A model generated the notes under the pieces. That model was not told the origin of the DNA. It made no database searches and worked only from the letters and a program-made list of their open reading frames with translations. Positions 965-63,650 of a stretch of 64,000 bases of DNA are shown here, piece after piece. The DNA comes from Amphiscolops sp. MND2022 (lineage: Eukaryota): NCBI GenBank assembly GCA_964187785.1, contig OZ076409.1, positions 38,256,001 through 38,320,000 of the forward strand. The letters are read 5' to 3'. Position 1 is the first letter of the stretch. Each line of letters starts with the position of its first letter. The translations under genes and the position numbers were made by a program.

Positions 965-3900
965 ATGACGTGGTGTACCATGGGGTTTTCAGGGAACCCA
1001 GACCCTATAATTGTATACCCTAAACCTAACAGTAAATACGTGGATGATACCATTTATTACAGTGGGCTACCAATTTGTTGTTTTGGATTGGTAAACAATT
1101 TGTTTGTTTTATGGGTGCTTATCAAACGGCAGCAGTCACCCCATCTGACTATTCTTAAGTCGATGGCTTTTGTGGATTTGTGTCTCATCGCCTTCTTCAT
1201 TTTGGTACTCAACTTTGGCAGTCAGTCGCTACCAGATACTTTTCTAGGAGGTCTCACTTGTCGGTAGGGGTGTGCTTGTTTGAAACAAGAAGCGCAATGG
1301 CAATGCTGAATTATTCAACTAACATTTGAACAATTAACAGCCCAAAAAAACTTTGAATTTGATCCGTAACCACTTGACCAATTTCTGAACGAAAATGGAT
1401 GAAAACAAAGGAAACATTGAAAACAATAGAAAATTACAGCATAGGATCTCATACACAAACAAGACTTGCAAACAACAAGACAACGTCTTTCAGTCGCCCA
1501 GAAGTTCGGAATGAATACGACGATCTCACTTTTTATGCAGGCTTCCGGCGTTTTCATTGGTTCATAGAAGTAGCATGGGACATCTGAATTTTGAAACCGC
1601 TCAAGTCTAAAAAAAAACAGGAACAAGATAAGGTAATAATACCCTGTCAGGTAATAAATAATTAGCGCCAAAAAACAAAGGGCGTACCCTTTTGTTCCGT
1701 CTAATCTTGTAAGGCGTGAATGCATATTGAATGCATTGAGACTCACTCAAGCAAAAATATGATATAGAACTAACCGATATGAGAAAATCGACAATTTAAT
1801 GTGAGGCTGGAATGGAAAACAAGCCCGGAAGGGCCCAGTTTCTTAAATATGCAAAAGATACTCTTGTTCAAAATTCATAAACTTTTCAGTGCCGGAAAAC
1901 GACCGAATGGATACGCATAAGAATCGAAAACCACTTTTCTCCAGCTGGAAACAACAAAAAACCATTTTTTGAGAAAAAATTCATTTTTTGGAAAAACTCT
2001 CTCAGTGCCGAAAAAAGCTTCAAACTTGCAAAACGCTTTGTTCAAGCGAAAACCGTTCATGAAAGTAGAGGCGATACACTTGGACCAAACAAAAATTCTT
2101 TCCGAAGAAAAGTCACACAGTACCGAGAAATACCGTAGTTCTTTTCACAATTATTGAGAAAACTCTCATCAGACCTAAAGAACCAAAAAAGCAATGAGGT
2201 CACCTTTAGGACTCGGAAAACGTTTTCCTTACAGAAAGCTTAAAAAAAACAAAATAAAAAGAATGTTTTGTAAATTTTTTCCACAAAAAATTTCTTTAAA
2301 ATCTTCGGTAAGTCGCATCGTGCCAAAAAGCCAAGGTATTATTGTTAAGCTTTGGCTTAACGAAAAGTACTAAAAAAGTACTTTCGGTTAAAAAAATATT
2401 GGACCTTTTGCTTTCCACTTAACTTTTGCCATCTTATAAATTTTTGATTTAGTGCGAGACTAGAACCCACGCACTCCTACTTCTCAGATCCGTCATCAAG
2501 CCTGGAAATCTGAGTTAACCCCTAGGGCAAGTGGCATTTAAAGGGTGTAAGTTAACTTAAAGAATTGCTTATAAAAATATGCGAGTTCGCTGGTCCTAAA
2601 AGAACAACAAAACTCAGACACAGCGCAATACTTTCCAAGCTCGGCATCCTCGTTAGTGAAACGCACTTTACATCAGATATGACGTCAAAATTCGAATATA
2701 GCATAGTAATTTCGAACCTCCTCTTCCTCTTTAGTAAAACGTATTTTACTTCGGATATATTACGCCTAACGTTCGGATATAGCGTGCTGGGACAAATGGC
2801 AGAGCTTTTTCGAATCTCCACTTCCTTCTTAGCTACTTCGGATAAAAGGTCAAAATTCGGATATAGCGCAATTCACGGGTACCATTTGACGTGGCGTACC
2901 TCTACAAGCACGAGAAAAATGCTAGCTAAAGCAGGGACTTAAACCTGCGACCGTTGGGTCACACTGAACTGATTAACCTCTACACAAAAAAGTGGTGATA
3001 CAGGAAAATATTTTCCTTCACAGAACTCCTCATAAAACTGAAAATTATGAAGAAAAAAATTTCCCAAACTTTTTTTCGACACATTAAAAAAATTGTAAAC
3101 TTGGGTGTTGAACATTGTGTTGCATTGTGTTGAGCAACAAACAAAAAACAAACCCTTTGGTCTCCCATTTACTTAAGGAAGTATTTAAAAAATTCGAGAA
3201 TGGAACGAACGTACGCTGCTTCCCAGATCTCAGAAAATCCGCATTAACCTCCAGGCCAAATGGCAGTTATATGTTCTTAAGTTACAGCTAAGTAGTAGTT
3301 TATAGTTATAGAATTGCTCAAAGAAATCTTTCAGTTCGCTGGTCTTTAAAAAGTCACTGCCATAGTCGGTTCTTTTCTTCGAAAAGATTCGACTAAAGTT
3401 CGACCTACGCGAGGTTTGAGTCCACAAACTCTTGCTCTCCAGCCCTGGACGCTTACCATTAGGCAGGGTAACAATTGTGTTTAGTAAGTTTCGATATGAG
3501 TGTGTTCAAAAAGTGGATAGCTCGAGTCTGAAGAGAAAAACGCCGTTTTTTGGTTGCTAACAAAAATGGAATTGAGGGGAACAACACAGGCAATAACACT
3601 GATATTTTCTAATCTCTTGAAATACCGCTTTTTAAATTCAAGAAATTAGCATTTACCAATGTATGAAGCGCGAACACGACTAGTAGGGACACTGTACGGA
3701 TACCGTTCATGAAAATGATTTCGTTCGAAAAAAAATATTTTCAGCCCTTTTTAGGCTGAAACATTCGTATAGCCGGGGGTAATCCGATTGCAACTCTATT
3801 ACGTTTTTCTACATTCTGGCTTCTGAAGTACTTTGCTGGTGTCATCCTTAAGAGGGCTTCTGTTGGTTGGTAAGAAACTTAAAACATTAGTTTAAACGTA

Positions 3901-6900
3901 AGAACTTTATTCAACAATTGCACACTTCAACTTACAGCTTTGTCGTCTCTGGTTTCCTCATCTACTTCTTTTCTGCCACTTCAGCCTGGCATGTAGTTAT
4001 TTTAGCCGTCGAGTTTTACGGAAGTTCTATGGAGTCTCCTTGGTACACATTTTTCACCAAAAACAAGTTACGAATCCGATGCAGCATCACAGTTTGCTGG
4101 TTTATTGGCTTCATCATTTGTGAGTTTTTCCGAAACAACCAAGATACATAAAAAAATACATACACGAAAATAACTTCAGAAAAAAAATCATCCTAATTGA
4201 TACAATGCGGGTGGTCAGAAATTGTTAATTTAAAATCAATTTTTCTGCCATTGGTTTCAGTTAAGTTTCAGAAAATTACCTTTGATGGCCCAAGTTACAT
4301 TTGAAAACGATTTTGAGAAATATCCTATTTTTATAGGCATCTAAAAGTTGTATGGATGCCGCAAATTTGGTAAGAACAAAAATATAGCATCTCGCTTCGT
4401 AACTCCCTGCTCTAAATCGATTTCGGAAAAACTCATAGCTTTCAATCGTTTATGGAACTTCCATGAGAACAACGGAGTGTGTTACCTGGATTATAAACAA
4501 CGCTTTTCCATTTTCTTCAATGACTTTGAAGAAATCATCTTCATACTAGTAGTACCCCTGTTCATCATGGTCTACTGCTACTGGCAGATTGTTAAAAGAC
4601 TACGGGAGGCTGCGAGGTGGAGACCAGATTGGGATAAAAATTAAATTAGAAACAACTGAGAAAATCGGTCAAAAATGGTTCATAAGTTTATAACAAGATG
4701 GTTCATAAGAACATTAAACAAGTTCATATAACAAGATGGTTCAGAAAACCAAAAGCGGAAGATAGAACAAGACGAGAACGCCTCAAGTCGGCGCTATATC
4801 TAAGGCTCAAAAAGCGCAAAACATTTTTTTTGGAAAAAAACTTGAAATTTTCGAAAAAAAAATTTCTTTCGAAAAATGTCGCAGTGCCGAAAAATGTAAA
4901 AGGGGGGACCCTTTTTGATTTATAAACACGCATTCTGTAGCAAAATAACAAAAAACTCAAAGGGGGGACCCTTTTGGGGACATTAAAAAAAATTCGAAAA
5001 AAAATCTCACAGCGCCGAAAAAAAATCGAAAGGGGGGGAGGTACGAAACTTTAGTCCCGTCCGGGCTTGTATGTAACGTTGAAAAAGTAAATGAATGCGC
5101 TCCCCGTTTGCCTTTAGCGGTCCAGTAGTTTAGTACTTATTTAGTAGTTGAAAGTTAATTTTAACGTTCGTCGCTTCGAGTCTGTCTTAAATAAAAAAAA
5201 AGAAAAAAAACGAGTGACTGTAATAGTCGGGCTCTTTTCTTAAGAAAAGCGCCGACTAAAAATCAATGCGCGAAATCTTTTGATACATTGATCTTACAAA
5301 AAGTCTCAGGAGCAAAAGTCACTCAAATTTTGATCAGCAATACAAATGTAATTTGTTTTGAAATCGCATCAGACATTAGAGCTTTATCATATTGTATTTT
5401 GAAGATTTTTGGAATTACTGTTCAGAAGAATAACCTCCTTCGATCATTTTTGTAACCGTGACACCATTATTTAACTGTAATAATTACCAACTATTCTGAA
5501 CAATTTTTCTTGAAAAATGAACAACCAAAAACACTTGTAATTTCGTCGAAACAATTTTTACACAGAGGCGAAGCCGTGCTTCGCAAACACTTGCGCAGAA
5601 TGTTGCGAACTTTTGAAGAAAACCAAATAAGCAAAATCATACGGAGAACCAAGTGTAAAATGACATTGTTAAAATTTCATCCATTTCACTGCGCCAAAAA
5701 ATACCCGAACGGATACGCATAAATCTCGAAAACCGTTCTTCCCCAACTGGAAACAGCAAAAAAAACCATCTCTCTCAACCGGAAACATTAAAAAAAAACA
5801 GAAAAATAAAAATAAAGATAGTTCTCGAAAAATTTTTTGAAGAAGGTCTCCGGTAAGTCGCATAGTGCCGAAAACCTTTAGCAGTCCTTCATGCTCGCAA
5901 AACGTTTCATTTCATGTAAAAAAACGAGGGGGGCTTCGATGAAAAAAATTAGTAAAAAGTAGCATACAAAAAACGCCGGTCTTTAAAAAAAAACAAAATT
6001 CGGATATAGCGTGCTGGGCCTCAGAAAACCTAATTTTAAGACAAAAATTATTCATTTTGAAATTTCTCACAATGCCGAAAGCTGTAAAAGGGGCCCTTTG
6101 AGATTTCTTAACAAGCATTCTATTGCAAAATTTCAAAAAATTGAAGGGGAACCTTTGGAGTCTTTGCAAAGTTTTCGAAAAAATGAGAATTTTTAACGGT
6201 CTCATAGTGCCGAAAAATTTGAAAGGGGCCCTTTGAGATTTTTTAACATTCATTCTGTTGCAAAATATTAAAACAAATTGAAGGGAGGACCCTTTGAGGA
6301 CATCAAAAAAATTTCGAAAAAAAGTCTCACAAAGCCGAAAAAAGGGAGGAGTCTAATAGTGCCGAAAAAGTGAGGACCTTCTGCTTCGCAATACTTGTAA
6401 AAAAAATTATGGCATACTCGCGGGTTCGAACACGAACCCTCTGGGTTGAAAAGCAAGCATCTTACCACTAGACCACGAACACCTGAACTATGCGACTTGC
6501 TGGCTGAAACGAGAGTTGTCGCGCGGAAAAAAAGCACCCGCACTTTCCCATAACACTTGCTTATCGCAAGTGTATTAAGGGGTAAAGATTGACAATTTCG
6601 CATTTCATGATTGCTGTATCAATTCTTAAGAATAGCGTTTTCCGAAAAAGTGCTAAATTCAAAAGAGATATGAATTAAATGTAAAAAACTTTGTTCCAAA
6701 CATTTTTTGTTCAGAACACTAGATCTCGAGATATTACATCACAAATTTCGCAAAAACGCAAACGTCAAAAATTAGCGAAGAATTTTGTTAGCTACTACCT
6801 TTCGCAGTTTTTGTGTGAGTTCAAACAAACAAGCCGAGAACGGCCAAAGTCGGCGCCATATCTAAGGCTCAAAATTGTAAAAAGTGGGACCCGTCGGGCT

Positions 6901-8893
6901 TTGCGGAACTCCAGCTGGTTGCAAAATATGAAAAAAATTGAAGGGGGGCCTTTGGGGACTAGAAACAATTTCCCAAAAAAGTGTAAAGAATGAGATTTTT
7001 GAACAGTGTCACAGTGCCGAAAAATGTAAAAGGGGGGACTCTTTGGGATTTTTTGACATCCATTGTGTTGCAAAATCTCGAAACAAATGAAGGGGGGACC
7101 CTTTGGTGCAATCCAAAAGGTTTCAAAAAAGTCGCATAGTACCGAAAAAAAAGTGGGGCTATGGGTGGGATCCTTAGTGTGATTTCGAAATTCTAGACGT
7201 GTTTTGTTTTTTCTTTTCGTTTTGGACGCGCTTTTGAGGTTCGAGTTGTTGAGGTTCGAAGTTGTTGAGGTTTGACGTTGTTGAACAAATGAACTGAACA
7301 AAAAAGTGGACCTTACGGGTCTAAAAAAACTACCCACTGTAAGAGTCGGGCACATTTTCTACTGAAATGCGCCGACTAAAAAATACCCGTGATTCTGGTT
7401 GAAATTTGGGATTTTGCTCCAATGAGTTTTTGAGATTTGAGATCAAGTGTCTTTAGCTTTTTGGTGACGTAGTGTAAGTCTAAAGTCGACACTTAAGGTC
7501 AAGTGGTGGGCCAAGCATACAGCGTTCAAAAAGTGGATCTTTCAATATGCGCTGTCATCTGGAGAAAAAAATGTCACTGAAATACTCTGGCTTATTTTTT
7601 TCAAAATGTGCCGACTAAAAACAAAGTCTTCATTATATGGGGTTTTATTGAAGCAGAAATGGTTTAATTCACATGCAACATACATGCCCATTGCCACCAA
7701 ACTACATCAATTGTCATTTTGTGATCATTAATCATATTAAATATAAAGTTCATGACATTAGAACCTCTGTCAATTCAGAAAAAAAAACATTACTTTTGAA
7801 ATGAATGCCCATCTTAGACTATCTGTCACATTTTCCGATAGATCGACAGTTTTCTTTAAAATGTCAATTCTGACCAATAGTTAAAATTGAAATGAAAAGA
7901 CAGAAAATTTGGTGGTTGGTGGTAAGCAATCGATCATGGTCTCTGTGGGCAGGTTCTACAAGGAGAAGATGGCGATAGATCCGACGACCCAGTTTGAGTT
8001 CCAAAAGGTCACCAAGTTCCAGAAGAGTGTCATGTGCAGAACTTCTTTCATATTTGCTGTTTACATGATCACGTGGATGCCCATCCAGGCACGGCTGCAA
8101 ACTCGTACATCAAAAGATATGGCAAAAAAAAGAGAAAGCACTCATGCGAGGTTACAATATCCAGATCTCTGGATATCGCTGCATTTTTAGATCAAAAGCG
8201 CATGTAACTCAAAACTTGTGATCACAAAATGAAAATATAGTCTTATAGTAACTGAATTCAGTAGTTCAAATTCAGAGCAGCTTTGACTAGAAAACTATCA
8301 AAATACTGAGCACACAGAAACACCATTTTTGACCAACTGCGGAATGCACGATTTATATCAAATATAAAACACCCACTGAAGAACAAAAACTACGTTTCAA
8401 TGATTTACAGGACAATAGAAATTGATATGAGACATTTTGGAAATTACTTTACTAGTTTTGCGTCAAGATTTTTTAATCATCATTTTCGATAACGTGACCT
8501 ATCAATTAACACTTGAAAATGAAACAGTGAAGAAACGACAGCCTTGCCGGAATGCAGGCTATTTACTTTATGTCGTTATGCAAACCCCCTCATAGCCCAG
8601 ACTCCCTAGAAGAGAAATACCGCTTTCTCACAGCTCAGTTCCTACCAATGATCAATTCAACCTTGAACCCAATTGTCTACAGCTGGACTTGGTTCGAGTT
8701 CAGAGAGGAAGCCTACAAACTGATCTCTCGAATCCGTCCTTCTCGAAAAAACAAGAATAACAAGCCTGTCAATGCAAGTGTGGGTGGTCCCACAACCAAT
8801 CAACCCGGACTGTCTTTGTTTGATGACTATCCGTCATGGAACACCAATAGATATGAGGACTTATCAGACGTTGAAACAATCAGCTCTGATTGA
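965..8893 (+). CDS. Class A (rhodopsin-like) GPCR, ~376 aa; exons 965-1263, 3938-4119, 4439-4616, 7953-8088, 8558-8893
   Basis: Exons join in frame (1131 nt). Motifs: TM1 GLVNN, TM2 MAFVDL, TM3 Cys and LAVEFY, TM4 Trp, ECL2 Cys, TM5 PLFIMVYCY, TM6 ITWMP, TM7 NSTLNPIVY. Intron 4 needs a GC donor. Confidence 0.85.
4766..5262. mobile_element. Non-autonomous Helentron/HINE-like repeat, full copy, in GPCR intron 3
   Basis: Head AACAAGACG..AAGTCGGCGC, tail AGTCGGGC..GCGCCGACT followed by an A-run, internal AGTGCCGAAAAA / GGGGGACCCTTT subrepeats shared with many copies in the window. Confidence 0.65.
6411..6484 (-). pseudogene. tRNA-like segment (Glu-like pseudo-tRNA or SINE head) inside repeat DNA
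   Basis: Minus strand has A-box GTGGTCTAGTGGT and B-box-like GTTCGAACCC; stems pair poorly. Confidence 0.4.
6827..7381. mobile_element. Helentron/HINE-like repeat, full copy
   Basis: Same AGTCGGCGC head, GCGCCGACT tail hairpin and internal subrepeats. Confidence 0.65.
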
Positions 8894-10675: not shown

Positions 10676-12811
10676 TGTCACGACCCGCTCCCGGTCGGGA
10701 CTTTTCCTGTTGTGGAGGAATCCCAAAATTCGCAAGGGGGAGAGGTCACGGAAGAGTCACGCAATGTTAAGTATTGTACAATAACTTACCTTTTGTCTAG
10801 ACTGCAGCACGAATTAAAATCTACGGAAGCACTACGTGAAATATCCAAAATGATTTTAAGCAAAATAAGATTTCCGGTTTAAAGTTTTCACACGTAGACA
10901 TTTTTGTTACTTCCGGTTTCAACGGCTGAAAATTCCATGTCAATCTAAATATTAAGAAAGAAAGACATTCATAACACTGGGATCATTTTTCTCCCTTCCA
11001 CACTGAAATGAAAACACTAAAACAATTATTTAATTCCGCGATCCCAACGGAACTCATACGATCTAAAATGAAAAGAACATCAAAATAGTATAGCAGATTC
11101 AATTTGGAATCTAAAGTAGTTGTAAGAAAGCCTCTCAAATTACAGTCAAGTAATCTGAGCAAACTTTTACAACGTTATGACAGCGTCACTCAGATAAACA
11201 AGTAACAGGTATTTCTATTTTTACGGACCAATAGCGTCGCTGCTAAGACCGGTATATTTGCGCTCACACTAGTAAGAAACCATTCCGATGACGTCACTAA
11301 AAATGAATTTAAAGATGGCGAATTTACTCCGAGCTTGCTCCGCTAGCAGCTAAGAAAGCTATACTCAATCTTAATACGTACGGAGCGCTTACGGAGCGAA
11401 TTATAAACCGAGAAAGTTATAGCCAACCTTAATACATAGGGAGCATTTACGGAGCGTTTACGGAGCAAATTGTAATAGATGAAGCTATACCTAATGTTAA
11501 TACATGTAAAACAACCGTGGAAAATTCTAAGACTTAGAGAATATTCTAATACATCAGGACATTCCTGAGAACATGTAGAATCACACTAAAACATTCAAAA
11601 CACTACAAGTTTTCACTTTTTCCATCCGGATTTGTCCCGTTTCGTGATCAACTAGAACATTCGTGTTGCAGATCAGGACAGAAGAAAATATGTGAAACAG
11701 GTGCTCTCTGTTGTTGAAACGGTATTTTATGTTTGTTGTAGTTTGTGATGAATTATGTTTGTTATATTGTTTAAACCAATCGATGCATGTAAATTACAGC
11801 CAGAACATTTAGCTCAATTGTTGCATGTAAATTACAACCTGAAGTTGTGTTTTGTTACAATAACCCAATCCCCGATATGTGCTAATTACTCTCCAGCATC
11901 ATTTGTTTCTTTCTGAAATGTTTAGCACTTTAGTCTAAAATTCATCCGCGGTGTTTCCGTAACCATTTTTGCTTGTCATACTTTTGTTGCGAACGGATGT
12001 TCTTCGCTAGACAGAGAGTGAATCATTGTTCACGTCAGCGTGCCTTTTGCGATAGAAATTCAAACTAGGCATTTATTTTGCCGCCTTTTCCGTGATGAAA
12101 CCGGAAATGGGAGTGTTGAACAAAAATGATTTCAACAAGTACTCCGTAAGGGAATCGTAACTAGGAATTTAAAATTGTGAACAATTAATTAAAGGGTTGA
12201 AATAATATGGATGATTAAGCATTTTGGTTGAACAAAACCGATTTTTAGGATTCCTAGGAATTTTTAGGTGAGGAACAAATGATGCTGTGAAAGTATATAT
12301 ACCTAAGAATTTGTAAATCTGTTCAATCTGTTTCCTGATCTACTCCGTTAACACTTCGTTTCGAAAACCATTTTTCTTTGAAGAATTCAAACCTTTCCAA
12401 AGAACAGTCTCTCTCACGTTCTATCAAAAATGACTACTAGAAGTCAGAAGAGAAAAGCTGTTGAAGAACTAGTTTCCACTGAAATGGAGACCCCAATAAC
12501 TGAGGTTAATCAAAACCTAAATCCCGTAGCGGGGTCAAGTAAATCTCCTAGAGTAACCACTGAAAATCTAGAGGAAATCAAGTCTTCACTAAGAAAGGAA
12601 ATCATGTCTGATCTCACCAAAATTTTAGCCGAAAATCAAAAGGAGATGTTAAAACTAATAGCTGCTCCTGTTAAAAAACAAACTGTCATAGCTACTGCTG
12701 AAGAAACAGATTCTGAGTCCGAAAATATTCCGGAAAACATAACTTCGACACCAATCAAAAATAAAACCACTGCGACTAATCGAAAAATCACCCCGATAAA
12801 TAGTCGTAACA
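10676..12811 (+). repeat. 5' LTR (2136 bp)
   Basis: Near-identical to 24443-26579 (about 5 differences seen by eye); TG...CA ends; TATATATA 12294-12301; AATAAA 12760-12765. Confidence 0.97.
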
Positions 12812-13842
12812 TGGTGACAGGAGTCCTCAATGACTCAACGAACCTCGGAAAGAAGAAAACACGACCGCATCGCCCACAAAGTTTGCCACCCAACGAACGT
12901 CCTTCGACATCACGACTACTCTTCGCTCCCCAACCAGAAATACACCAGCTGCCCCACCTACCCCCAATGCCCAAAGCACTCACTGCATCACTGCCTGTAT
13001 TCGATGGTAAGTCAGAAAAATTCGAACTTTTCGAGGACTTATTCCGGAACAACATAAAAATGTACCCACATCTAACAGAAATCCAAAAAATCAACTACTT
13101 CCACTCACTACTACGAGGCAATGCACTACAGGCATATTGCAACTTAGATGATGCCAAAAAAGATAATTTAGAGGAAGTAATTACGGCGTTCAAACGACGC
13201 TTCGGAGATTTCCAATCTTCTGCCAAAGCGAGATGCGACTGGGACTCGCTACATTTTGACCCAACCAAACAAAAACTACATGAATTTTTGGATACACTGC
13301 AAAAAACGGCTAAAGAAGCGTTCGGCTCTGAAGCACAAAAATTTATAGACAAGGCCATATACGCCAAAATGCCAGACCACGTCAAAAAGATCCTCAACCG
13401 AGCCTACCTCGAGGACAAACCCTATAATGATATTGTCCTACATCTCGAACGAGAGATGCGCCTTAATGGCCTGGGAGCCCCAGACGAAACCACACTAGTA
13501 CCACTAAATACGGTCGACGTCGTCCCACCGGAACCAAAAAAGGAACTCACCCAACGAGGAAGTTGCTTCCACTGTGGCAAACAGGGGCATTATAAAGCAC
13601 AATGCCGCAAATTAAGAAAAGATCGTTACTACGAAACTAAAGCACAGAACGGTGTCCCCAAAACCATTGAACCACCCAAACCAAAGTGCGACACTTGCGG
13701 AAAGCTCCACAAAACCGAGAACTGCTGGTACGGAGCTAACGCGGCGAATGACCCCAGGAAGAAACGTCATGAATTCACAATCCCTACCAGCCAAATCAGT
13801 GAACAACCAATCCCCACTGTTGAAATCCAGCCAAAAAACTGA
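12430..13842 (+). CDS. gag: Gag, 470 aa
   Basis: Capsid-like LPVFDGK..F..FE..F; zinc knuckle CFHCGKQGHYKAQC and a second CDTCGKLHKTENC; starts inside the LTR. Confidence 0.92.
   Translation: MTTRSQKRKAVEELVSTEMETPITEVNQNLNPVAGSSKSPRVTTENLEEIKSSLRKEIMSDLTKILAENQKEMLKLIAAPVKKQTVIATAEETDSESENIPENITSTPIKNKTTATNRKITPINSRNMVTGVLNDSTNLGKKKTRPHRPQSLPPNERPSTSRLLFAPQPEIHQLPHLPPMPKALTASLPVFDGKSEKFELFEDLFRNNIKMYPHLTEIQKINYFHSLLRGNALQAYCNLDDAKKDNLEEVITAFKRRFGDFQSSAKARCDWDSLHFDPTKQKLHEFLDTLQKTAKEAFGSEAQKFIDKAIYAKMPDHVKKILNRAYLEDKPYNDIVLHLEREMRLNGLGAPDETTLVPLNTVDVVPPEPKKELTQRGSCFHCGKQGHYKAQCRKLRKDRYYETKAQNGVPKTIEPPKPKCDTCGKLHKTENCWYGANAANDPRKKRHEFTIPTSQISEQPIPTVEIQPKN
12812..12824 (+). other. Primer binding site, probably tRNA-Leu-like
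   Basis: TGGTGACAGGAGT directly after the 5' LTR; TGG complements tRNA CCA. The tRNA identity is from memory of Leu PBS sequences. Confidence 0.75.
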
Positions 13843-13886
13843 AAACGCCGCGCCTCGGCTTCGGGGAAACGGTAGACGCGAGGGCG
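13833..13886 (+). promoter_or_regulatory. -1 programmed ribosomal frameshift signal
   Basis: A_AAA_AAC at 13833-13839 just before the gag TGA, 6-nt spacer, GC-rich stem (CGCC..GGCG enclosing CCTCG-GCTT-CGGGG). The -1 frame is open into pol. Confidence 0.8.
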
Positions 13887-16800
13887 TACACAATAGAAGA
13901 CCCCCCAAATCGCTACGAAGAAGACTTCATGACGGAATGCAACGAAGAACCGACACAGGACTGGCAACGTCGTTGGAACGTAGGCATGATACTTAGACAC
14001 AATGCACGACACCCAGAAGACCCAACACCACTACCCCAATGGATAACAGAATCGCCCGATAACTACGCGACACTAAAAAGACCCCTACCAGAATCAAAGA
14101 CCGAACGCATTTACATATATGATAAAGACTATAGATGTGATCCATGGGATGAACCAACTATCTATGACACAAACAAACTCTCTTTTAAGATCCAAGTTTC
14201 AAATCCTCAAGCTCAAGTCACCGAGAGTACAACCCTACCAACACCTTTGTCACCAATCCTAAAAAAGACAACACAGTCCTCGCCAACACCCGTCACCACC
14301 ACGTCCACACCAATAGATGCAGAGAATATTATCTGCATTGAGGATAAAACAATATGGTCACAACAAGCAAAAGAACAACGCGGAGTAGCCGACCAAATAG
14401 TATCACCCCCAACAACAGCATCTGAATGGCCAAATCAGAACAACAATCATGAAGACGACGAAGTAACGGAATGCCCACAACAACTGCCATACGATCTCAA
14501 CATCATAAAAGAATTCATACAACATGATAAAGATGACGACTACATTCCGTTAATGTCGGCAATTACCCTCAAAAAGAAGAAAAGAATGCTCTTTATTCCT
14601 CTCGACTTTGAAAACACTAGAATTGATGCATTAGTCGACTCGGGAGCCTACATCAACGTCATCAGTGAAAGAGATGCAGACAAGATACAAACTGAAGCCA
14701 ACACAACCATAATCGCAAAAGCACCTCCGCCCCCTTTCAAGATACAATATGCCAACACAGAACTCGAAAAAGCCCGTGCAACATACACAATGCAATTCAA
14801 AATCGGGGATTACGCGTTCGAGGAGACCTTCATCATCATGACCAAAACATCTTACCCAATCATTGGCCTGGCATTCCTCCGGAAACATTCCGCAATCCTA
14901 GATACTGCACAAGGAACAATAGACTTTCCCAAAATACAAATCACTCTAGCCCTAAAAGATGAAAGACAGAAGTGCAATCCCAAACCCATCACTATCAAAA
15001 CGGAAGAAAAACACACCATACCAGCCCAAACCACACGAATCATCCACGCCTCCATCACCACAAGCAATGACCACTCAATAACTGGGACAGTCCAACCTTT
15101 ACCACAGTTCGACGAAAATGCAAAACTCATAGTAGCCCCAGCAATAACAACAGCCCGAGACAAACGAGTTGCGATAAAAATAGCGAACACCACAGACTTC
15201 CCCTATACAATAACGCCACATACGAAACTAGCAGAATTACAAATACTGAAACCCGAAGAAACGAAATTGATACGAGCAGTAGACATAGCAGCCCTCAATC
15301 TACTCACCGAACATGACGATGTTGTTGCGTACGTTAATGCACTGATGCAAGTTGATTCGTCAGAACAAATAGAAGAGAAATTCTGGTTCCCAACTCCTGA
15401 AAATCCCGGAGATGAATCGGAACACACACCCATCCAACAACGCATTCTACGAGAACTACGCGAACTACAAAGACTAGAAGAACTGGACCCCAAACAAGAC
15501 GAAAAATCTAGAACACAATTCCTCTCGCTATTCAAATGGAATGATTCACTAATAACGGGAGAAGACCGTGAAAACCTAGAGTCCACACTAGTCGAATTCA
15601 ATGACATTTTTGCACGTCACCGACTGGACATCGGAATGAACAACCAGTTCAAGGTATGCCTAACTCCCAAAAACGACAAACCGGTATATACACAGAGTCT
15701 CCCCGTACCCATCAACCTCAAAGACGACCTCACAGTAGAATTGGCACTGATGCACAAATACGGGATCATCACAACCCTCCCATTCTCGAAATATGCCAGC
15801 CCCATCTTCGCGCAACGCAAACCCAACGGAAAACTACGGCTCCTAGTAGACTTACGGAAAATCAACGCCCTCATCTCAGATGACTACATAAACAACAACC
15901 ACCCCATCAGCACCCTCTCAGATGCCGCACAACACCTAGCGGGGAAACAGCTGTTCTGCAAACTAGATTGCTCACAAGCCTATCACTAACTCCAAATGGC
16001 AGATCAAAGGTCAGTAGAACTCCTTGCATTTAATTTTGCTAGTAGAACGTTTGCCTATCGTAGGCTAGCCCAAGGCCTTAGTAGAGCCTTGTCAGCCTTT
16101 TCGAGCTTCATGCGGGAATACCTCGACACCGTCATCAAAGCAGACCAGTGTGCCCAATATGTAGACGACATCGGAATCGCCGCCAACACAACGGAACAAC
16201 TCATCAAGAACATCAGAGCAGTCTTCAAATGCATCCGCAAGGCAGGACTAAAACTCACAATTGAAAAATGCCACTTTGGTGTCACCCAAATCGAATTCCT
16301 AGGAAGAACCATCACACCCCACGGAGTAGCACCGCAAGAACACAAAATCACCAACTTCTTATCAAAAATCAGATTTCCCCGGTCAAAGAAACAAGTCCAG
16401 AAATACATTGGATTCATCAACTACTACCGAAACTACATACCAAGACTGTCTGAAAAAATGATTGGAATGTATGAACTCCTAAAAGCAGATGCCAAAATCA
16501 CCATATCAGAAGAATTAGTCGACAACTTCAAAGCCATCAACGCAAGCCTAGCGGAAGCATGTGGGCTAGCCCTCAGACAACCAGTTGCGGGAAAACAATA
16601 CGTGCTAATGACGGACGCAAGCTTCCGGGCATCAGGTTACGCCCTAATGATAGAAGAAAACGACGATAAAAACTACTCTCCAAACGGAAAACTTTCGCAC
16701 CGGTTGCTTTTGGTTCCCGCGTATTCTCGCCGTCACAACTGAAGATGTCGATATACTGTAAAGAATTCCTCGCAATATATCACGCATTCCTTGAATATAG

Positions 16801-19047
16801 TCACATTCTCTGGGAAACAACACTACCTACACTAGAACTGACAGACAACAGATCAGTAACAAGATTTTTCCAGACGAAAACAACGCCACCAGCTCTCTGG
16901 AATGCCTGTGACTACGTACTCCAGTTCAAATTCCGCATCATGCACGTAGCGGGCTCGCAAAATACAGCAGCCGACTTCCTGTCTCGACTCGAATTAACTC
17001 CAAAAGAGAGAATCCAACTCAAATTGCGAGACGACATCATAACGGCACCTATCGAGGTTAACCTACAGTCTACAGATGTTGCAGACGAAGAACAACTCTT
17101 TTTCCTGCCAGACGAAGAAGAGGAATCAGAACAAGAAATTTTCGCCAGGAAAGCCCTTAGCAAACAACGAGCAATCGACGAAAAGGAACAACAAAACTTG
17201 ACAACGGAAGTCACAGAAACAGTGCACATACCTCTCAACTCAGCAGTATACGCCTTTGGAGCCATCAAGGAAAACGCCCGCATCCGCAACGAACAGGACG
17301 CGGACCCGATATTGAAAGCATTGAAACTACGGCTGCTTCACGAAGAATACGACAAACACCTTCTCAAGACCGAACCCAGAGGACGAAACCTACTACGTCA
17401 CGAAGAAAGAATAATAGTCAAAGACGGAGTACTCATGCGTAAATACTACGGAGAAGATGGCACAGTAACACATCACCGAATCCTCATACCGAAACATATA
17501 GTACCAGAACTCCTATCGACGCTACATGGAAAAATGAACAAACACCCAGGAATAACCAAAATGATTCAGGAAAGCCGAGCAAAGTATTACTATCCGGGAC
17601 TTGCACGGAAAATTAGAGCCTGGGTAATCAACTGCCCAGATTGCATATCCAACAAACGAATCGACACGCGCCAAATACGTCCTAAAATGCTGAGTAATAC
17701 AGAATTCACATTCGGACCAGATGATTGTCTAGAAGTCGATATTCTACCCAATCTACCCTCATCAAACGGCTACAAACACATCATAACCATGATGGACGTT
17801 TTCTCCCGTTATTTGTTCGCATACCCCACTCAAGACATGACTGCCAGAACAGTAGGACGATGCATAATCGACGTTATGACACGTCACTGTTATCTGCCTA
17901 CAGTGATTCTGACTGATAAAGGATCACAATTCCGATCAGATGTCGTGAACCAAATAGCACAAACACTGGACATACGGATTAGTCACGCGTCAACAAAGCA
18001 TGCACAAACAATCGGCATACTCGAAAGAACGCATGCATCTCTAAAGACTTCCCTCAAGATATCAACGGGAGAACGCCGTTCAATGTGGCACAAATACGTA
18101 CAAATTGCAGTAATGAACTACAACACTAGTTACCACGAAAGCCTAGGATGCGAACCAACAACCGTATTTCACGGACGCATCCCGTACAACATCCTAGACA
18201 TCAAACTAGGACTCAAGCCAGAATGGAAAAAAGATGCCAACGAAGACCTAACGGATGAACTACAGAAACAAATAGCTGAGATACATCAATCAGCCAAGGA
18301 CAACCTTATGCAATCATATTTGAAATATAAGCGATACTACGATAAAAAAGCGACAGCAACGCCATTGAAAGTCAATGACTATTGCTATGTCCTGAATCCG
18401 AAGGCTGATAACCAGTCAATGAAGTTCGCTTTCAAAGATTGCATTTGGACAGGACCATATATAGTGGTCAAAGTCCTTTCCAATAACAACTACGTCGTAA
18501 GACGAACAGGAACAAGATACACTCAAACCCTCCATAGAATTCGCCTAAGGCTATATGCGCCCAATCAACGAGTACCTGACGTCACAGTCAAAGTGGAAGA
18601 TCAGCTTCCAGATCCTGAGGTTAAAACAACCCATGATGATTGGTACGCGCAAGCTTGGGAAACCGAATTCGGAGAAGTTCTGTTCGGAAACACATCGGAA
18701 AGAGAAAACGAGGAAGCTACCATCACAGAACTGCCAGCGGATGACGGAGCTACGACGGAACAAGATACAGTTATAACAACTGCAGATGAAAACTTGACGG
18801 CAGAGAACCTCCCTCTGGAAATGAAACGTCACTTAATCTAGATGTCAGCGATAACCCTTTCATAATGACTCCGCCGCCTATAGAAAGCCCTCCCATACCA
18901 CCTACACTACCGCCTATAGTTGTTGGATACAATCCGAGGAAAACGGAAAGATATAATCTACGACCTAATCCTAGACCTAATGTACACCCAGATTTTCGGA
19001 TGCTTGACGCAGTCATCACAGAAGACACATCTCACACTCAAAATTGA
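13833..19047 (+). pseudogene. pol: Pol (protease, dUTPase-like, RT, RNase H, integrase), disrupted
   Basis: LVDSGA, YVDD, TDAS, H..HPG..CPDC, D/TDKG/ER. In-frame TAA at 15987-15989, frameshift in the A-run at 16668-16672, probable frameshift at ~18790-18838 before the RYNLRP tail. Confidence 0.92.
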
Positions 19048-19212
19048 ATGAAAACACTCGACAAGCCAAACCGAACCGGAGAGGCTACGTTAAATTTTTC
19101 AACATCCGACTAAAACTATCTAAACAACAATCGGACAACTGAAGTGCCCAGAAATAATACATGAAGATAATAAATCACATAAAATTGAATACAATAAATT
19201 CAATACAAATGT

Positions 19213-22200
19213 TCAACGGCCAAGAGGCTTACTAAGTCGATGCTTCACGTCCGGATCAACATCGCGTTTCCCAGACTTCTTTTTCTTCTTGGGCGTAACT
19301 CCCACGTCCGCGGAGGGAGAAGTATTTTTCGTAGACTGCCCCTTACGAGAATTGGCCGCACCCTTCCCAGAGGACTTCCAACTCACACTAACTTCCTTAC
19401 TTGTCTGCGCAACAGTAGAACCTGTCTGACTGACTGAAACTTTCTCTTTTTGTGATCCCGCAGGAAGAGGGCAACGTGACACCTGACTGGGAGACTTCAC
19501 TCCTGACTGTACCCGCGATAGACGATTTGTCACATTACGGGCATTATACTCCACATCGAACTCTTTCCGTCGCTCATCTAGATAGGCCAAATACAAAGAC
19601 ACATATCGCTCAGAAAAAGCGTCAGGATCTGCCCGATAGAAATCCTCCCACATGCTGAACCCACCCGAAACGAAGAACGTCCCAGCAGTAGACACGGCTT
19701 TACGTACAGAGCCTAGAGCTTGATCGCTGAAGAGGCCCTGAGCGGAGTAACCAGCACTCATCACATATGATTGTACCAATCGCAAGCAGTCATAAAAAGA
19801 TCTCGGATCCAGGGCACTACCACTCAAATCGAAATCCAAAGCGGGGCAACTCCGAACAGGCATCCCAATGAAAAGACAGCAAAGTTTGAACACACGGAAG
19901 ACCCGATGCCGAGCTTGAAAACCGAAGTCCAACAGAAGATACGCCACCACATCATCAATATTGGTTGCAGACTGCTTCGAACTCGCATGGCTCCTTCGCC
20001 TTTCAACAATAAAGCTAGAATACTCATCTAATGCGCCTTTCGACTCATCCGACGCCAACACTCCGCAAGTTTCCAGAATGCTACACAACCCCGCAAACAG
20101 AGCAAAAGCAGTGCTATTGTCACCCTCAAGCATCAACTCCGGGCAGAAGCTATAAATCCCTTTGCTCACAGCTGATGTTGCACTAGGATTTTTCAACAGA
20201 GTGACAACTAAGCAGTCCAGAAATTCACGACATCGCACCCGAAAAGTAGTGAAATTACTCGTCTTCTTTTCGTTCAGCAAGCGCCCCAACTCATAATTTT
20301 CCAAAAATTCATCGTCAGGAATACTGGGAAACGCTTTCACCTTTTCGACATCCATATATTCCTCCCACTCATGGATCCCGGGGAGACTAGTAGATACGCG
20401 GGTCTTCAATAGCAGGCAATAGACGAAGTTACACACTTCCCCGTAACAATGAAATGCGTAGTCACTCCGTCCTTTCTCCATTTTTCCAAAGTTGATAAAG
20501 ACTAAAACATCAAGAAGCGTCAAAACAGCCCCATACAACATACAATATCCAAGCAATCCAACAAGCCAAGAAGACACACACGGATAGAAGGCGCAAAAAG
20601 ACATAACTCAAAAGGTCGCGTGCAACCAAACCAAATACTCACATGTATCCAGAACGAAACGGAAAAGTCTAAACCGATAGACAATCAAGTCATCGGCCAC
20701 CAACAGCCAATCAGTCCCCTGCATCTGCAAAAACAACATACCAGTAAAAAAAACAAACTCGAACCAACAAGAACAACTCCACGGAGCAACTACGCAAACC
20801 ACAACACTACTATGTACAAAACATAACAAGGAAGAAACAATAACAAAACTAACCCTGTCGGAAGATCCCTTTGCCTCAGGGTTCCCAGTACACCGAATAT
20901 AGGGCCGAATCGAAGACCAAAGATCAATCAAGTCAGTGAGCAGTGCCCGCAAATCTTTGAACTCCACGAAACCCTGGCGGACACATCGACGTAGCACCAC
21001 TTTAGATTCCGTCCATTCTTCGTAGAGAGCACTCTTCAACCGCTGTAGGGTGTAATCGACCACAGTGGTAATCTCGACCATGCCGAAAACATCTTGGTAA
21101 GATTGGCGAATACACTGCAAAATTGTCTCTAAGACGAAAGGCTGGTACACAATAAAACGGTGACTGTCCTTGCGATTGTCGCTCAAAACCCGGAGAAGTG
21201 ACGGACTGACACCCAAGATCGAAAGAGGCATCTTTTCACCTTCCAAACAGCAGATAAATCGAGATAACGGAGTGACTTCAGAATAAGGCACTGGCTGCTC
21301 CAACGACTCACTCCCGATGCAGACCTTTTTCAAATGTTCATCTTCCCAAAATAGAACAAAACATCGTTCTTCAAAGGTGTCCTTTTCAAATTGCACGGAG
21401 TACTCCCGGAAACTGGATATTCCACGAAGCATAGCCCGCATCACGCGAGGAACAATGCCCTGACACAACACTGCCTATAACACCACAGCATACAGTTATA
21501 ACCAGACTCTCTTCAAAAGAAAAGACAGAATGAAGAAACAGAAAATGGGAACTGTCTCCTATTCAAAAAAAAAAGAGAGAGAAAAAGAAGAAACGAAACA
21601 CAAACCATGACTCAGCAAAAAGCTCAAAAAATACTCACCGCAGTCTCTGAACGACTCCATTTCAGTTTGAATTCTGGCTCACGACTACCTAACGTAGCCA
21701 GAAAGTGTCCCCAGAGACGCTGTACTAAGGAAAAGCTACCACCGCTCCGCAACCACTCGCAGATACTGGACACCAGAGTCATAAAGGGCACTTTCGACTC
21801 CACCTTCGCGTGTTTTGGTAGCAAGTCTTCGGGAAACGGATACTCTTCTCCCAAGTCCACAAAAGGCCGCGACCTGAAATCTGCCTCCTGATTGGCGGAC
21901 AGAGTCATGGGCTCCATCAGCTTGTTCAGCACGGGCCAACCCATGTGCAGACGGTACACCACGTCCTGCTCCCAATGCATCCTAGACTCGAAGTGACGAC
22001 TGAACTCTCCGGCGCCCTGAGCTTTCATCGCAACGTCCCGTCTACAGATCCGGCAAAAGAAAAATTTACCGCTTCCACATCTCGAACCGGTAACGAAGTC
22101 ACCAAACACAGGATGAAGTGCCAACATGCGCCGATGTAACAAATTACGGCTACTATATTTCTTTGGAGGCTTCGGTCTGTCCAAACGACTTTCTACCTTC

Positions 22201-23279
22201 TCCACCAGATCGTTAAAGCCTACAACACACAAACCAAAGTTGCCGGGATACTGACGTTATTCTACCGAAACAGACTCCTCTCATAACTGCTACAACTTCT
22301 GCAACAAAATTACCATACGGAAACAATTCGCAAAGCACTCAAACCATGGCTAACCTGATTGCAACTGAACCAACGCCCGCTCCTCCACCTCAGACACCAA
22401 ATGCCGGCCAAATTGAGCAATCTCAGGTGACACAATGCCCACTTCTATCATTGGCGGCACAGTATCGTTCCCCCGAGCACCCTCACATTCCGAAGAAGCC
22501 CGTGCCCACACAGATGAAACCTTCTTCCGTTGCAATTGAGGCGGCGTCTCGAATCTCACGGCAGATCCCCGGAAAGGAAACACTCTCGATCCTATAACAA
22601 CAACCACAATACGAATACCAAAATAAGGACAACCACCCATACCATCGCAACACATACACTCAAAAAGCGGAAACTCTGGAGAAAACTAACCGCTAGGAGC
22701 GTCTTCCTCTTCGTCGCCTCCTTCATTTTCAGACGAGGAGGTGCCTGCCTCACCTCCATGAGGCTCCTTTTCCAGACCAAGCCCAGACGAAAGCATCCCG
22801 GACAACTCTGGGAGTGCAGTCCTCGAAACAGAAACAGAAGCATCTGGCTCAGCTACATCTTGGCCAGAGAGCGGTGTCGTCAGCGTCTCGTTAACAGTAT
22901 TGCCTTCAGGCAAAGAGAACACAGAACTAACGGGAGGTAAAGCCGAGGAAGAAGCCAACAAAGGCAATTCCACAGCCCCGTCAGGAAGACGAGCAGAAGA
23001 CACGACAACCGAACTGCTACCAGGTTGAGCTACTGAAAATCAAGATCTGGTTTGACGCGTCAGAGTTACGGGTAAGACTATAAAAGGCTGATCACCAAAA
23101 GAGTAGTCCAATTGCCCATGAGAGTCAGAAAGATTTTACCAACCTGAAGAAGTAACTGGTATCTCAGCCTCAGAGTGGAAGGCATCATTGTCAGTGAAAC
23201 AAAAAGTGGTTTCATTACCACTAACATGTCCAGACTGAGGAGCAGGAGTAAGCGGAGGAAGGTCGGAATTATCTTCCAT
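19213..23279 (-). CDS. Antisense spliced accessory gene, ~1095 aa, zinc finger plus hAT-transposase-like body; exons 23279-23144, 23032-22691, 22591-22355, 22219-21639, 21474-20854, 20724-20643, 20501-19213
   Basis: Six GT-AG introns (111, 99, 135, 164, 129, 141 nt), all phase-compatible, give one stop-free 3288-nt frame. CRIC-x16-H-x5-H finger; C-terminal PKKKKK. Confidence 0.85.
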
Positions 23280-23808
23280 TCGTCAACAGCAATCTGAAAA
23301 AGAAAGAAACAATCCTCACTACCCTGCTATAGCAAAAGGAAAGAAACATCAACCCCGGGGATGCATCGGAAAAGATATTAAGAAGAACACTAGAGATTGA
23401 AGAAAGAAAATGCATCATCCTTTTTCCCTCGCATTTAAGCAAGATATGATATTGACGGAAGTATATCGCTTCCAAAAGGAAAAAGAAATCAAAGATTAAA
23501 TTTGACCTTTCAAATGTCCTAAAAAGAAAAAGATCATTTCCCTAATTAATGACGTCACACGGATCGCTCTCGGAAAAGAATTGGTGACGCCATGATGAAG
23601 TTCAAAATTAGAAACTTTATTCATATCGGTTCAGCAAATCACAGCGCAGATAGAAGCGAAACGTTTCCGAAGGAAAACGAACCGGAATAAAAGAAAAATA
23701 ACAGCCAATAGGAATGCAGGAAAATTACGAACGAAAAGGAAGTTGACTTTTTCATTTGCCGCATCCCGAACGTGAAGTTAAGATAGCTGAAATCTTCAGA
23801 ATTCAAAA

Positions 23809-24537
23809 ATGAGCAATTACGAACTCGTAATTGATATCTCTTCTGATGAAGAAGAAAACGAAGTCAGGCAGAGCACACCCATCAAAACCCTCCCACTAAA
23901 TGGGATCACAGTTCTGAACCTCTCCGAAGCCTCCTTAGAAGCTACAAAAGGCAGCGCAGAAGAGATGATGGACTCAATCAATAGTCTAAATTTATCCGGC
24001 ATCTCAGCGTCTACATTTGAGACTATCGGTTCACCAAGAAAAATAAACTTCGTCACTACAAGCCCTGGCGAAGCTTTCATAGTGGAAGGGCATAGTACTG
24101 AAACGTCTGAAGAAAGCTATTTTGAAGAGCCTGACACTCCCCGTCAACTGCCCCCATTACAGCCTGCCCCAGTCTTACGGGATATGACCAACGGAGAACT
24201 TTCGCTCAACGAGCCGCCTACAAAAATTGATCGGCTTGACGATCTAACGGAGCCTACTATGGAAGATATAGAGAATGTCTATGGCATCGTTTTGCAGAGC
24301 AGCTCAGAGTTCAACTCACTATGCGGACGTGGGGCCCGTTTCACCTCCACAAAGCTGACAAGAGCTCGCAAGCAGCCTGTGCTCATCACAAGAGAGATTC
24401 CGCACTGCCCCCGTCCCGTGTCAACAGGCTATAGAGGCGCCCTGTCACGACCCGCTCCCGGTCGGGACTTTTCCTGTTGTGGAGGAATCCCAAAATTCGC
24501 AAGGGGGAGAGGTCACGGAAGAGCCACGCAATGTTAA
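23809..24537 (+). CDS. Accessory ORF, 242 aa, acidic and S/T/P-rich, function unknown, ends inside the 3' LTR
   Basis: ATG in A-rich context, long open frame, N-terminal LVIDISSDEEE, last 95 nt inside the LTR. Confidence 0.65.
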   Translation: MSNYELVIDISSDEEENEVRQSTPIKTLPLNGITVLNLSEASLEATKGSAEEMMDSINSLNLSGISASTFETIGSPRKINFVTTSPGEAFIVEGHSTETSEESYFEEPDTPRQLPPLQPAPVLRDMTNGELSLNEPPTKIDRLDDLTEPTMEDIENVYGIVLQSSSEFNSLCGRGARFTSTKLTRARKQPVLITREIPHCPRPVSTGYRGALSRPAPGRDFSCCGGIPKFARGRGHGRATQC

Positions 24538-26579
24538 GTATTGTACAATAACTTACCTATTTGTCTAGACTGCAGCACGTATTAAAATCTACGGAAGCAC
24601 TACGTGAAATATCCAAAATGATTTTAAGCAAAATAAGATTTCCGGTTTAAAGTTTTCACACGTAGACATTTTTGTTACTTCCGGTTTCAACGGCTGAAAA
24701 TTCCATGTCAATCTAAATATTAAGAAAGAAAGACATTCATAACACTGGGATCATTTTTCTCCCTTCCACACTGAAATGAAAACACTAAAACAATTATTTA
24801 ATTCCGCGATCCCAACGGAACTCATACGATCTAAAATGAAAAGAACATCAAAATAGTATAGCAGATTCAATTTGGAATCTAAAGTAGTTGTAAGAAAGCC
24901 TCTCAAATTACAGTCAAGTAATCTGAGCAAACTTTTACAACGTTATGACAGCGTCACTCAGATAAACAAGTAACAGGTATTTCTATTTTTACGGACCAAT
25001 AGCGTCGCTGCTAAGACCGGTATATTTGCGCTCACACTAGTAAGAAACCATTCCGATGACGTCACTAAGAATGAATTTAAAGATGGCGAATTTACTCCGA
25101 GCTTGCTCCGCTAGCAGCTAAGAAAGCTATACTCAATCTTAATACGTACGGAGCGCTTACGGAGCGAATTATAAACCGAGAAAGTTATAGCCAACCTTAA
25201 TACATAGGGAGCATTTACGGAGCGTTTACGGAGCAAATTGTAATAGATGAAGCTATACCTAATGTTAATACATGTAAAACAACCGTGGAAAATTCTAAGA
25301 CTTAGAGAATATTCTAATACATCAGGACATTCCTGAGAACATGTAGAATCACACTAAAACATTCAAAACACTACAAGTTTTCACTTTTTCCATCCGGATT
25401 TGTCCCGTTTCGTGATCAACTAGAACATTCGTGTTGCAGATCAGGACAGAAGAAAATATGTGAAACAGGTGCTCTCTGTTGTTGAAACGGTATTTTATGT
25501 TTGTTGTAGTTTGTGATGAATTATGTTTGTTATATTGTTTAAACCAATCGATGCATGTAAATTACAGCCAGAACATTTAGCTCAATTGTTGCATGTAAAT
25601 TACAACCTGAAGTTGTGTTTTGTTACAATAACCCAATCCCCGATATGTGCTAATTACTCTCCAGCATCATTTGTTTCTTTCTGAAATGTTTAGCACTTTA
25701 GTCTAAAATTCATCCGCGGTGTTTCCGTAACCATTTTTGCTTGTCATACTTTTGTTGCGAACGGATGTTCTTCGCTAGACAGAGAGTGAATCATTGTTCA
25801 CGTCAGCGTGCCTTTTGCGATAGAAATTCAAACTAGGCATTTATTTTGCCGCCTTTTCCGTGATGAAACCGGAAATGGGAGTGTTGAACAAAAATGATTT
25901 CAACAAGTACTCCGTAAGGGAATCGTAACTAGGAATTTAAAATTGTGAACAATTAATTAAAGGGTTGAAATAATATGGATGATTAAGCATTTTGGTTGAA
26001 CAAAACCGATTTTTAGGATTCCTAGGAATTTTTAGGTGAGGAACAAATGATGCTGTGAAAGTATATATACCTAAGAATTTGTAAATCTGTTCAATCTGTT
26101 TCCTGATCTACTCCGTTAACACTTCGTTTCGAAAACCATTTTTCTTTGAAGAATTCAAACCTTTCCAAAGAACAGTCTCTCTCACGTTCTATCAAAAATG
26201 ACTACTAGAAGTCAGAAGAGAAAAGCTGTTGAAGAACTAGTTTCCACTGAAATGGAGACCCCAATAACTGAGGTTAATCAAAACCTAAATCCCGTAGCGG
26301 GGTCAAGTAAATCTCCTAGAGTAACCACTGAAAATCTAGAGGAAATCAAGTCTTCACTAAGAAAGGAAATCATGTTTGATCTCACCAAAATTTTAGCCGA
26401 AAATCAAAAGGAGATGTTAAAACTAATAGCTGCTCCTGTTAAAAAACAAACTGTCATAGCTACTGCTGAAGAAACAGATTCTGAGTCCGAAAATATTCCG
26501 GAAAACATAACTTCGACACCAATCAAAAATAAAACCACTGCGACTAATCGAAAAATCACCCCGATAAATAGTCGTAACA
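24443..26579 (+). repeat. 3' LTR (2137 bp)
   Basis: Direct repeat of 10676-12811, followed by the TSD ATATT. Confidence 0.97.
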
Positions 26580-29422: not shown

Positions 29423-29875
29423 CAGGGGTGTTCAATAAATAATTACGGGTAAGAATAATTATAATAAATAAAGTAAAATAATTTATTTTTACACTCAAAT
29501 GAATAAAAATAATAATTTTTGGACCTGTTAAAATAAAAATACTTATTGTTGAGATAACTGAAACTAGAAGCGTTCAGTTCAACATATCGTCAGCCAATTA
29601 AATTCGAAAATACTGAAATCTTGAGCTAATTGCTAGAAATACATTTGTCAAGTACCTTGGGCTACTGGCTCAAAAGGTCGAAGAGTTATTTAAAAAGCCA
29701 TGTCGCCGCCTTTTGGCCTGATTATGGACAACCAATTTAAGTTTTTGTTGATATCCGGTTTTCGCTGAGAATAAAAATAATTATTTTAGCAAAAAAATTA
29801 TTCTTTCCACAATGAAAATAAAATAATTCATTTTTAGGCAATAATAATATTTGAATAAAATATTGAACACCCCTG
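29423..29875. mobile_element. hAT-type MITE
   Basis: Perfect 15-bp TIR CAGGGGTGTTCAATA; 8-bp TSD TTCATGGG at 29415-29422 and 29876-29883. Confidence 0.92.
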
Positions 29876-63542: not shown

Positions 63543-63650
63543 AAATGATTCGAATACAATAGTTTGATAACCAATTTTGACGAAAGTGATTTTGCTGGAA
63601 ACATTGAAAAGGTGGGTTTAAAAGTGTGTAAACGAGTTGGGATACGGGAT
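63170..63650 (+). pseudogene. Highly decayed Gypsy RT remnant (truncated copies end at 55837 and 59701)
   Basis: KIRLCL.....AIKR and LDD..VYGST.EE resemble the RT RLCLD and YxDD regions. Confidence 0.55.

Follow-up and report, generated by a model that had tools for sequence, protein, structure and literature searches.

A window of 64,000 nucleotides from Amphiscolops sp. MND2022 (assembly GCA_964187785.1, contig OZ076409.1, positions 38,256,001 to 38,320,000 of the forward strand), in whose own numbering positions are given here, holds near its left end a predicted five-exon gene for a rhodopsin-type G protein-coupled receptor (GPCR), an open frame of 376 amino acids once four introns are removed. 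The assignment was made through a homolog, P0001, which is 62% identical to the window product and scores 51.6 bits, above the cut-off, against the 7tm_1 profile (PF00001); single exons of the window gene fall below it, exon 3 matching with an E value of 6e-6 under the curated cut-off. The exons, all on the plus strand, lie at 965..1263, 3938..4119, 4439..4616, 7953..8088 and 8558..8893 (the last including the stop codon); each continues the open frame, with support for exon 1 from alignment with intronless paralogs and for exons 2 and 4 from spliced alignment. Between them are placed intron 1 (1264..3937, GT-AG, 2674 nt, with repeats nested inside it), intron 2 (4120..4438, GT-AG, 319 nt), intron 3 (4617..7952, GT-AG, 3336 nt) and intron 4 (8089..8557, GC-AG, 469 nt). 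A purpose-written spliced aligner, supplied with three intronless paralog open reading frames (ORFs) only and with no pairing information, recovered all four junctions when splice-site weights were used and three of the four without them; run with a generic GPCR profile it again recovered three, missing intron 2. P0001 is collinear with the window gene across junctions 3 and 4, and no relative of the P0001 locus was found in metagenome contigs.

It had been proposed, from the letters of the DNA alone, that all four of these introns have mutually complementary ends, and this is borne out. When the first 25 nt of each intron were paired with its last 35 nt, the energies for introns 1 to 4 were -18.9, -22.3, -18.9 and -15.1 kcal/mol (p 0.018, 0.002, 0.004 and 0.13 against dinucleotide shuffles), and in each case the intron's own acceptor outperformed the 11 mismatched acceptors taken from the window. 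When three exon bases are added, the four pairs range from -18.8 to -23.6 kcal/mol; among 370 other GT introns, 1, 0, 1 and 1 are at least as stable, which places all four within the top 1% of 403 usable introns (579 were called and 176 dropped by filters on flank score, gaps, length or N). The best stem is that of intron 2, in which 4121-4135 is, as proposed, the exact reverse complement of 4421-4435, a perfect 15-bp inverted end. The pairing of intron 3 (4617-4631 with 7931-7946, using G-U pairs and one bulge, within arms at about 4617-4632 and 7929-7946) is also as originally described; that of intron 1 holds once a T bulge and a TT loop, omitted from the strings first given, are admitted, and that of intron 4 (arms 8086-8098 and 8538-8550) holds with the correction that this is a GC-AG intron whose stem contains one C-T mismatch. 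The description of the introns as long and filled with transposable elements suits introns 1 and 3 but not the short introns 2 and 4. It is also true that the stems differ in sequence and do not form one repeat family, but this is no argument against transposons, because 8-bp target duplications accompany many distinct families in this genome.

An alternative offered in the original prediction, that the paired ends are relics of intron-generating elements, is strongly supported for introns 1 and 4 and agrees with the geometry of intron 3. The 5' arm of intron 1 (1265..1275, plus strand) matches, base for base, the 11-bp terminal repeat of an element family with many copies, and its 3' arm (3920..3930, plus strand) forms 8 of 11 Watson-Crick pairs with it, two of the changes giving G-U pairs. 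The intron can be read as the last base of a putative first 8-bp target duplication (1257..1264, plus strand, 4 of 8 bases identical to 3931-3938), followed by the element at 1265-3930 and by 7 bases of the second duplication, the 3' arm stopping 7 nt short of the intron end. The 11 bases that follow the first G of the intron have 591 copies, many of them in one tandem array, against 102 for a control, and among the 100 matches listed there are at least seven inward-facing pairs less than 1 kb apart. Six of the seven pairs were read, and their flanking 8-bp duplications match at 8, 8, 4, 7, 7 and 7 of 8 positions; five of the six copies read that have the intron 1 repeat, then, carry duplications matching 7-8 of 8, and an 8-bp target duplication is a hallmark of hAT transposons. 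A match to the hAT dimerization domain (PF05699, with 76 matches among the 150 scored) is found 111 bp away from one of the motif copies, a connection of adjacency alone. Intron 4 is flanked by a direct repeat (8082-8089 and 8551-8558, 6 of 8 identical), and an unrelated AAA-ATPase gene, an AAA-lid gene that we take to be FtsH-like, has an intron with both the same 12-base 5' end and the same 11-base 3' arm. That intron, a GC-AG intron of 602 nt on the minus strand (L261:908-1509), is one of 22 other sites of the intron 4 12-mer, and has the same internal mismatch and the same 7-nt tail; the interiors of the two introns are unlinked by BLAST.

Intron 3 shares the 7-nt-tail geometry of intron 1, with 7 of 11 Watson-Crick pairs and a 4 of 8 duplication, and its repeat shows no inward-facing pairs among the 100 matches listed; it fits a transposon origin less securely than introns 1 and 4 do, and intron 2 stands outside the assignment. 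The intron 2 15-mer has 36 copies against 8 for a control, and of the 20 that were read none outside the window shows paired ends. In whole-length searches of the genome, introns 2 and 4 each had no match but itself, and the idea that intron 2 is a multi-copy miniature element was dropped on that single match. For the ends of introns 2, 3 and 4 no intact copy with a duplication was found. About 20 distinct intact elements that start with CAG or TAG and have duplications matching 7-8 of 8 are present in some 2 Mb (overlaps counted twice), and one of them lies in the window itself, at 29423..29875; this miniature element of 453 bp has related 13-bp terminal repeats, is flanked by a perfect 8-bp target duplication and serves as a model of an intact insertion. 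The terminal motif of intron 1 also occurs head-to-tail every 52 bp at G000:C1:98957077-98960468, an array that seems to be a satellite derived from the end of an element.

The paralogs of the receptor gene bear on its history. Of three paralog ORFs, L135 and L137 have their full length and no introns, and L136, whose start is absent, runs uninterrupted across all four intron sites. The nearest paralog (L132-L134, on the minus strand of G000:C4) has three introns at positions unlike those of the window gene. Under the best-fitting model its donors are GA, GC and GG, none of them GT, and all three introns are end-paired (-14.8, -17.2 and -26.0 kcal/mol) with direct repeats at their junctions, the repeat that flanks the third intron matching at 7 of 7 positions. 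The GC and GA junctions come from separate aligner runs, and the GG junction was picked by eye and is supported by protein length, although the aligner itself preferred other junctions. The seven introns of these two genes occupy seven different positions, which suggests independent gains, and the comparison makes it likely that the GPCR gene was once intronless, before the insertions. In other GPCRs 50 introns were called in 19 loci, of which 22 were usable and 6 of those paired at or below -12 kcal/mol; the sample is too small and too noisy to call GPCRs in general enriched for paired ends.

A wider class of introns was met in dynein heavy-chain genes, 18 of which were located and parts of 17 used for intron calling, against 44 full-length proteins among 150 representatives. 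A first run admitted GT and GC donors only; the addition of GA and GG left 230 GT introns unchanged, and brought to light donors of the form AG|GGATG, with the complement of the donor end sitting shortly before the acceptor. In the wider form AG|G[G/C/A]A[T/C]G such donors are found in 16 of the 403 usable introns, including seven GG-AG introns, which amount to 7 of 381 usable dynein introns. Fourteen of the 16 pair at or below -12 kcal/mol, as against 30 of 370 GT introns (p 4e-9), among them all four members from a later set of 49 introns, and 15 of the 16 have at least 8 of 13 end pairs (18% under the null). The tail that follows the 3' arm has its mode at 11 nt (6 of 15), a length equal to that of an 8-bp duplication plus three bases replaced by the start of the element, and the six introns with this tail keep 22 of 48 duplication bases identical (p 0.001 against 25%). 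An intact element with a GG-class end and an 8 of 8 duplication was found in the DNA examined. Seven GG junctions and one GA junction outscore the best in-frame GT or GC alternative or have no such alternative, one of them by only 2 points, and one GG or GA junction falls inside a P-loop. The same transposon process is likely to account for the roughly 2% of tested introns that begin with GG or GA rather than GT. Elsewhere in the dynein genes, GC donors occur in 9 of 261 high-confidence introns, T stands at +3 in 66 of 185 donors, and short introns are few (median 569 nt, 5th percentile 80). A fixed-tail register scan of 320 dynein introns gave 47 cases at 7 of 10 where 50 were expected.

The reading that we favor, and consider probable, is that the paired ends are eroded terminal inverted repeats belonging to DNA transposons, chiefly of hAT type, which became introns in a once-intronless GPCR gene. 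The transposons would have inserted into the gene and later been removed from its message as introns, by either of two routes. Along the first, proposed for introns 1 and 3, an element would insert at a target ending in AGG, so that the last G of the first 8-bp duplication together with the first base of the element would make a GT or GC donor, an AG within the second duplication would serve as acceptor, and the message would be restored without a scar; an acceptor within the second duplication accounts for a 3' arm that ends 7 nt before the end of the intron. Along the second, proposed for the 16 other introns, the first three bases of the element would turn exonic, the donor (AG|GG, GC or GA) would lie inside the repeat and the acceptor AG would be found about 11 nt past the element, intron 4 being similar but for its 7-nt tail. 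Each insertion would come from a different family, for which reason each stem would differ, and later nested insertions may have lengthened introns 1 and 3.

Several observations weigh against this reading. Past the 11-bp repeat, intron 1 fits the interior ends of the living family poorly (12-15 of 20), and the repeat proposed for intron 3 is not enriched (277 copies against 288 for its control). The tail of intron 4 measures 7 nt where the second route predicts 11, and intron 2 fits no target-duplication geometry; none of 18 other copies of its 15-mer that were read has a partner within 2 mismatches. The duplications in the window match at only 4, 4 and 6 of 8 positions (introns 1, 3 and 4), and the geometry of the first route, at 8 of 11 or better, recurs in none of the 403 other introns. 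The rule that defines the wider class was written after the data had been seen, only its GGATG/GCATG form having been noted before the later set. Introns of the class share their position with a dynein paralog in 3 of 9 cases and GT introns in 102 of 313, so much alike that recent gain is not shown by this test. The junctions of the window gene, finally, are predicted ones that rest on homology.

Complementarity arising by chance, in a single gene chosen out of a very large number of windows, is scarcely credible to us: although intron 4 taken alone does not differ significantly from its shuffles, and 30 of 370 GT introns do reach -12 kcal/mol, all four receptor introns rank in the top 1%, intron 1 matches the end of a real element and intron 4 matches a second intron. 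The main proposal of the original prediction was more ambitious, namely that RNA stems bring splice sites together across long introns as a genome-wide system of structure-assisted intron definition. Pairing in 4 of 4 introns of the window gene and in 3 of 3 of its nearest paralog is what such a system would give, but the dynein genes refute it for their own introns. Of 471 dynein introns called in the run restricted to GT and GC donors, 253 passed a strict filter and 235 were long enough for the pairing test, and among these the true ends pair no better than mismatched ones (-6.27 against -6.47 kcal/mol, mean Z +0.11), with no trend across five length bins and no excess in three sizes of end window (p 0.94-0.99). 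The same holds for 409 introns on which two passes agreed (p 0.95). None of 92 dynein introns longer than 800 nt has a Z below -2. Within the window, the three introns of a tubulin gene show no end-pairing signal and the five of a phosphodiesterase-like gene reach p 0.07-0.09 at best, so that none of the eight control introns is significant. A general stem system is therefore rejected as very unlikely, and the receptor gene is an outlier.

A further possibility accepts the transposon origin, and is compatible with the reading we favor, but adds that selection has kept the stems to hold splice sites together, compensating for donors that are weak or not GT and for the absence of pyrimidine tracts; we consider this possible but rather doubtful. 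The splice sites of the window gene are indeed weak, at the 0-26th percentile of dynein sites, and in the six introns with 11-nt tails the repeats remain paired at 57 of 78 positions while the duplications are identical at 22 of 48 (Fisher p 0.003), a contrast that is inflated, however, since the repeat itself guided the choice of register and the second duplication falls in a region selected for pyrimidines. Class members pair at 4.3 of the 7 positions from +6 to +12 with their own end, against 1.9 with the ends of other members. The 3' arm could instead persist as a branch point. For introns 1 and 3 the sense strand gives stronger pairing than the antisense (-19.9 against -13.6 and -18.9 against -14.1 kcal/mol), but in the class as a whole the difference between sense and antisense energies is +0.2 (p 0.90), and mismatches in the stems, 7 G-U and 7 A-C, show no bias toward the RNA strand. 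When the end of intron 2 is translated in frame it resembles the N-terminal 14 residues of P0001, a resemblance equaled by 4 of 403 intron ends, which hints that the intron 2 arm may be conserved in a relative. No variant of the U1 small nuclear RNA (snRNA) that reads a GG, GA or GC donor was found among 23 U1 genes (42 of 17,560 candidates were scored). On the other side, stem strength and splice-site weakness are uncorrelated across the 235 dynein introns (rho 0.10, p 0.13), and stems that cover the U1 and pyrimidine-tract sites should be expected to hinder splicing rather than to aid it. The more far-reaching form of this idea, that hAT ends act as a second splicing code by which GG, GA and weak-donor introns are removed through pairing of the terminal repeats, without a matching U1 variant, and that selection keeps the stems after interior and duplication have decayed, is speculative and in our view unlikely.

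The U1 snRNA loci (L217-L239) have features of their own. At least 21 genes score above the cut-off and fall into several divergent types, with 5' ends that read AAG|GTAAGT (6), CAG|GTTAGT (3) and others; three genes of different types have a common altered 5' end and nearly identical stretches of 75 upstream bases, and one gene (L222) is located within a dynein gene. In the remainder of the window, an LTR retrotransposon-like element with gag, broken pol frames and repeated ends extends from about 10700 to 26700; its ORFs at 11343-11793 and 25111-25561 are identical, and long antisense ORFs lie at 19213-22256. The control introns belong to two genes on the minus strand, a tubulin gene recognized by a Pfam match (46400-51400), presumably of the epsilon type, and the phosphodiesterase-like gene (37000-40050), which we assume to be glycerophosphodiester phosphodiesterase-like. 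From about 52000 to 64000 the window consists of tandem units of about 3864 bp with fragments of an integrase-like ORF.

The transposon reading offers a base-level account of intron gain in an intronless animal receptor family, and links the rare GG-AG type of donor to the terminal sequence of hAT elements. Cases of this kind, old and single-copy, would escape surveys for introners, elements that generate introns, which need similar introns to be present, and transposon-driven intron gain in animals may have been undercounted; signatures carried by the ends only, the 7- and 11-nt tails, provide a way to count such introns. Gene models for this genome should admit GG and GA donors. If the stems do prove to be needed for splicing, transposon ends would have been converted into splicing signals.

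The closest known systems are the introners, with terminal inverted repeats, target duplications and splice sites drawn from the duplication or the element (PMC11282704). Families of introners classified as hAT, with 8-bp duplications, include one in the tunicate Styela clava, and among the table rows seen such families show gt, gc, ga or NC donors (PMC12130899). The window introns resemble introners in having inverted repeats at or near their ends in 4 of 4 cases. Introners are defined, however, by introns similar to one another in sequence, whereas here only the ends remain, the interiors occurring once or resisting alignment: at whole length introns 2 and 4 are unique, and intron 4 and its AAA-ATPase counterpart share their ends only. 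The putative target duplications are partial in introns 1, 3 and 4, and the direct repeat at the third intron of the nearest paralog matches at 7 of 7; positions are distinct among the GPCR paralogs, whereas among dyneins the sharing of positions does not set the class apart. The donor and acceptor scheme of the first route has a precedent in class 12 of Polarella glacialis, in which the last G of the duplication and the first base of the element form the donor and the acceptor comes from the duplication (10.1101/2020.10.14.339549). Polarella and the Symbiodinium elements also have many unrelated families per genome, but these are dinoflagellates with thousands of young copies and, for class 12, a 5-nt duplication, in contrast to an animal genome with 8-bp duplications and a few percent of its introns involved. 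In the copepod Eurytemora affinis GA and GG donors are frequent (PMC5714493, PMC7072748) and follow an obligate exonic AG, mostly with A at +3, in introns that were apparently gained recently; there they make up about 12% of introns and are mostly GA, as against about 2% and mostly GG here, and the portions of that paper available name neither inverted repeats nor a transposon origin (PMC5714493). In human, GG-AG introns amount to 0.014% (PMC5714493). The non-canonical introns of Fritillaria borealis and the nonconventional introns of euglenids likewise have paired ends derived from miniature transposons and lineage-specific positions, but they lack GT-AG at both ends (PMC11282704), whereas in the present case neither the AG acceptor nor the first G is ever lost and the majority of introns are of the ordinary kind. 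No report was found of hAT-derived GG-AG introns in an animal, nor of such a pattern in acoels, subscription papers lying outside the coverage, and the names of four acoel genera are absent from 12 of the 14 supplementary files of PMC12130899. Introner-like intron gain is already established, and what appears to be new, as judged from these literature searches, is the proposed turning of hAT ends into GG donors in an animal.

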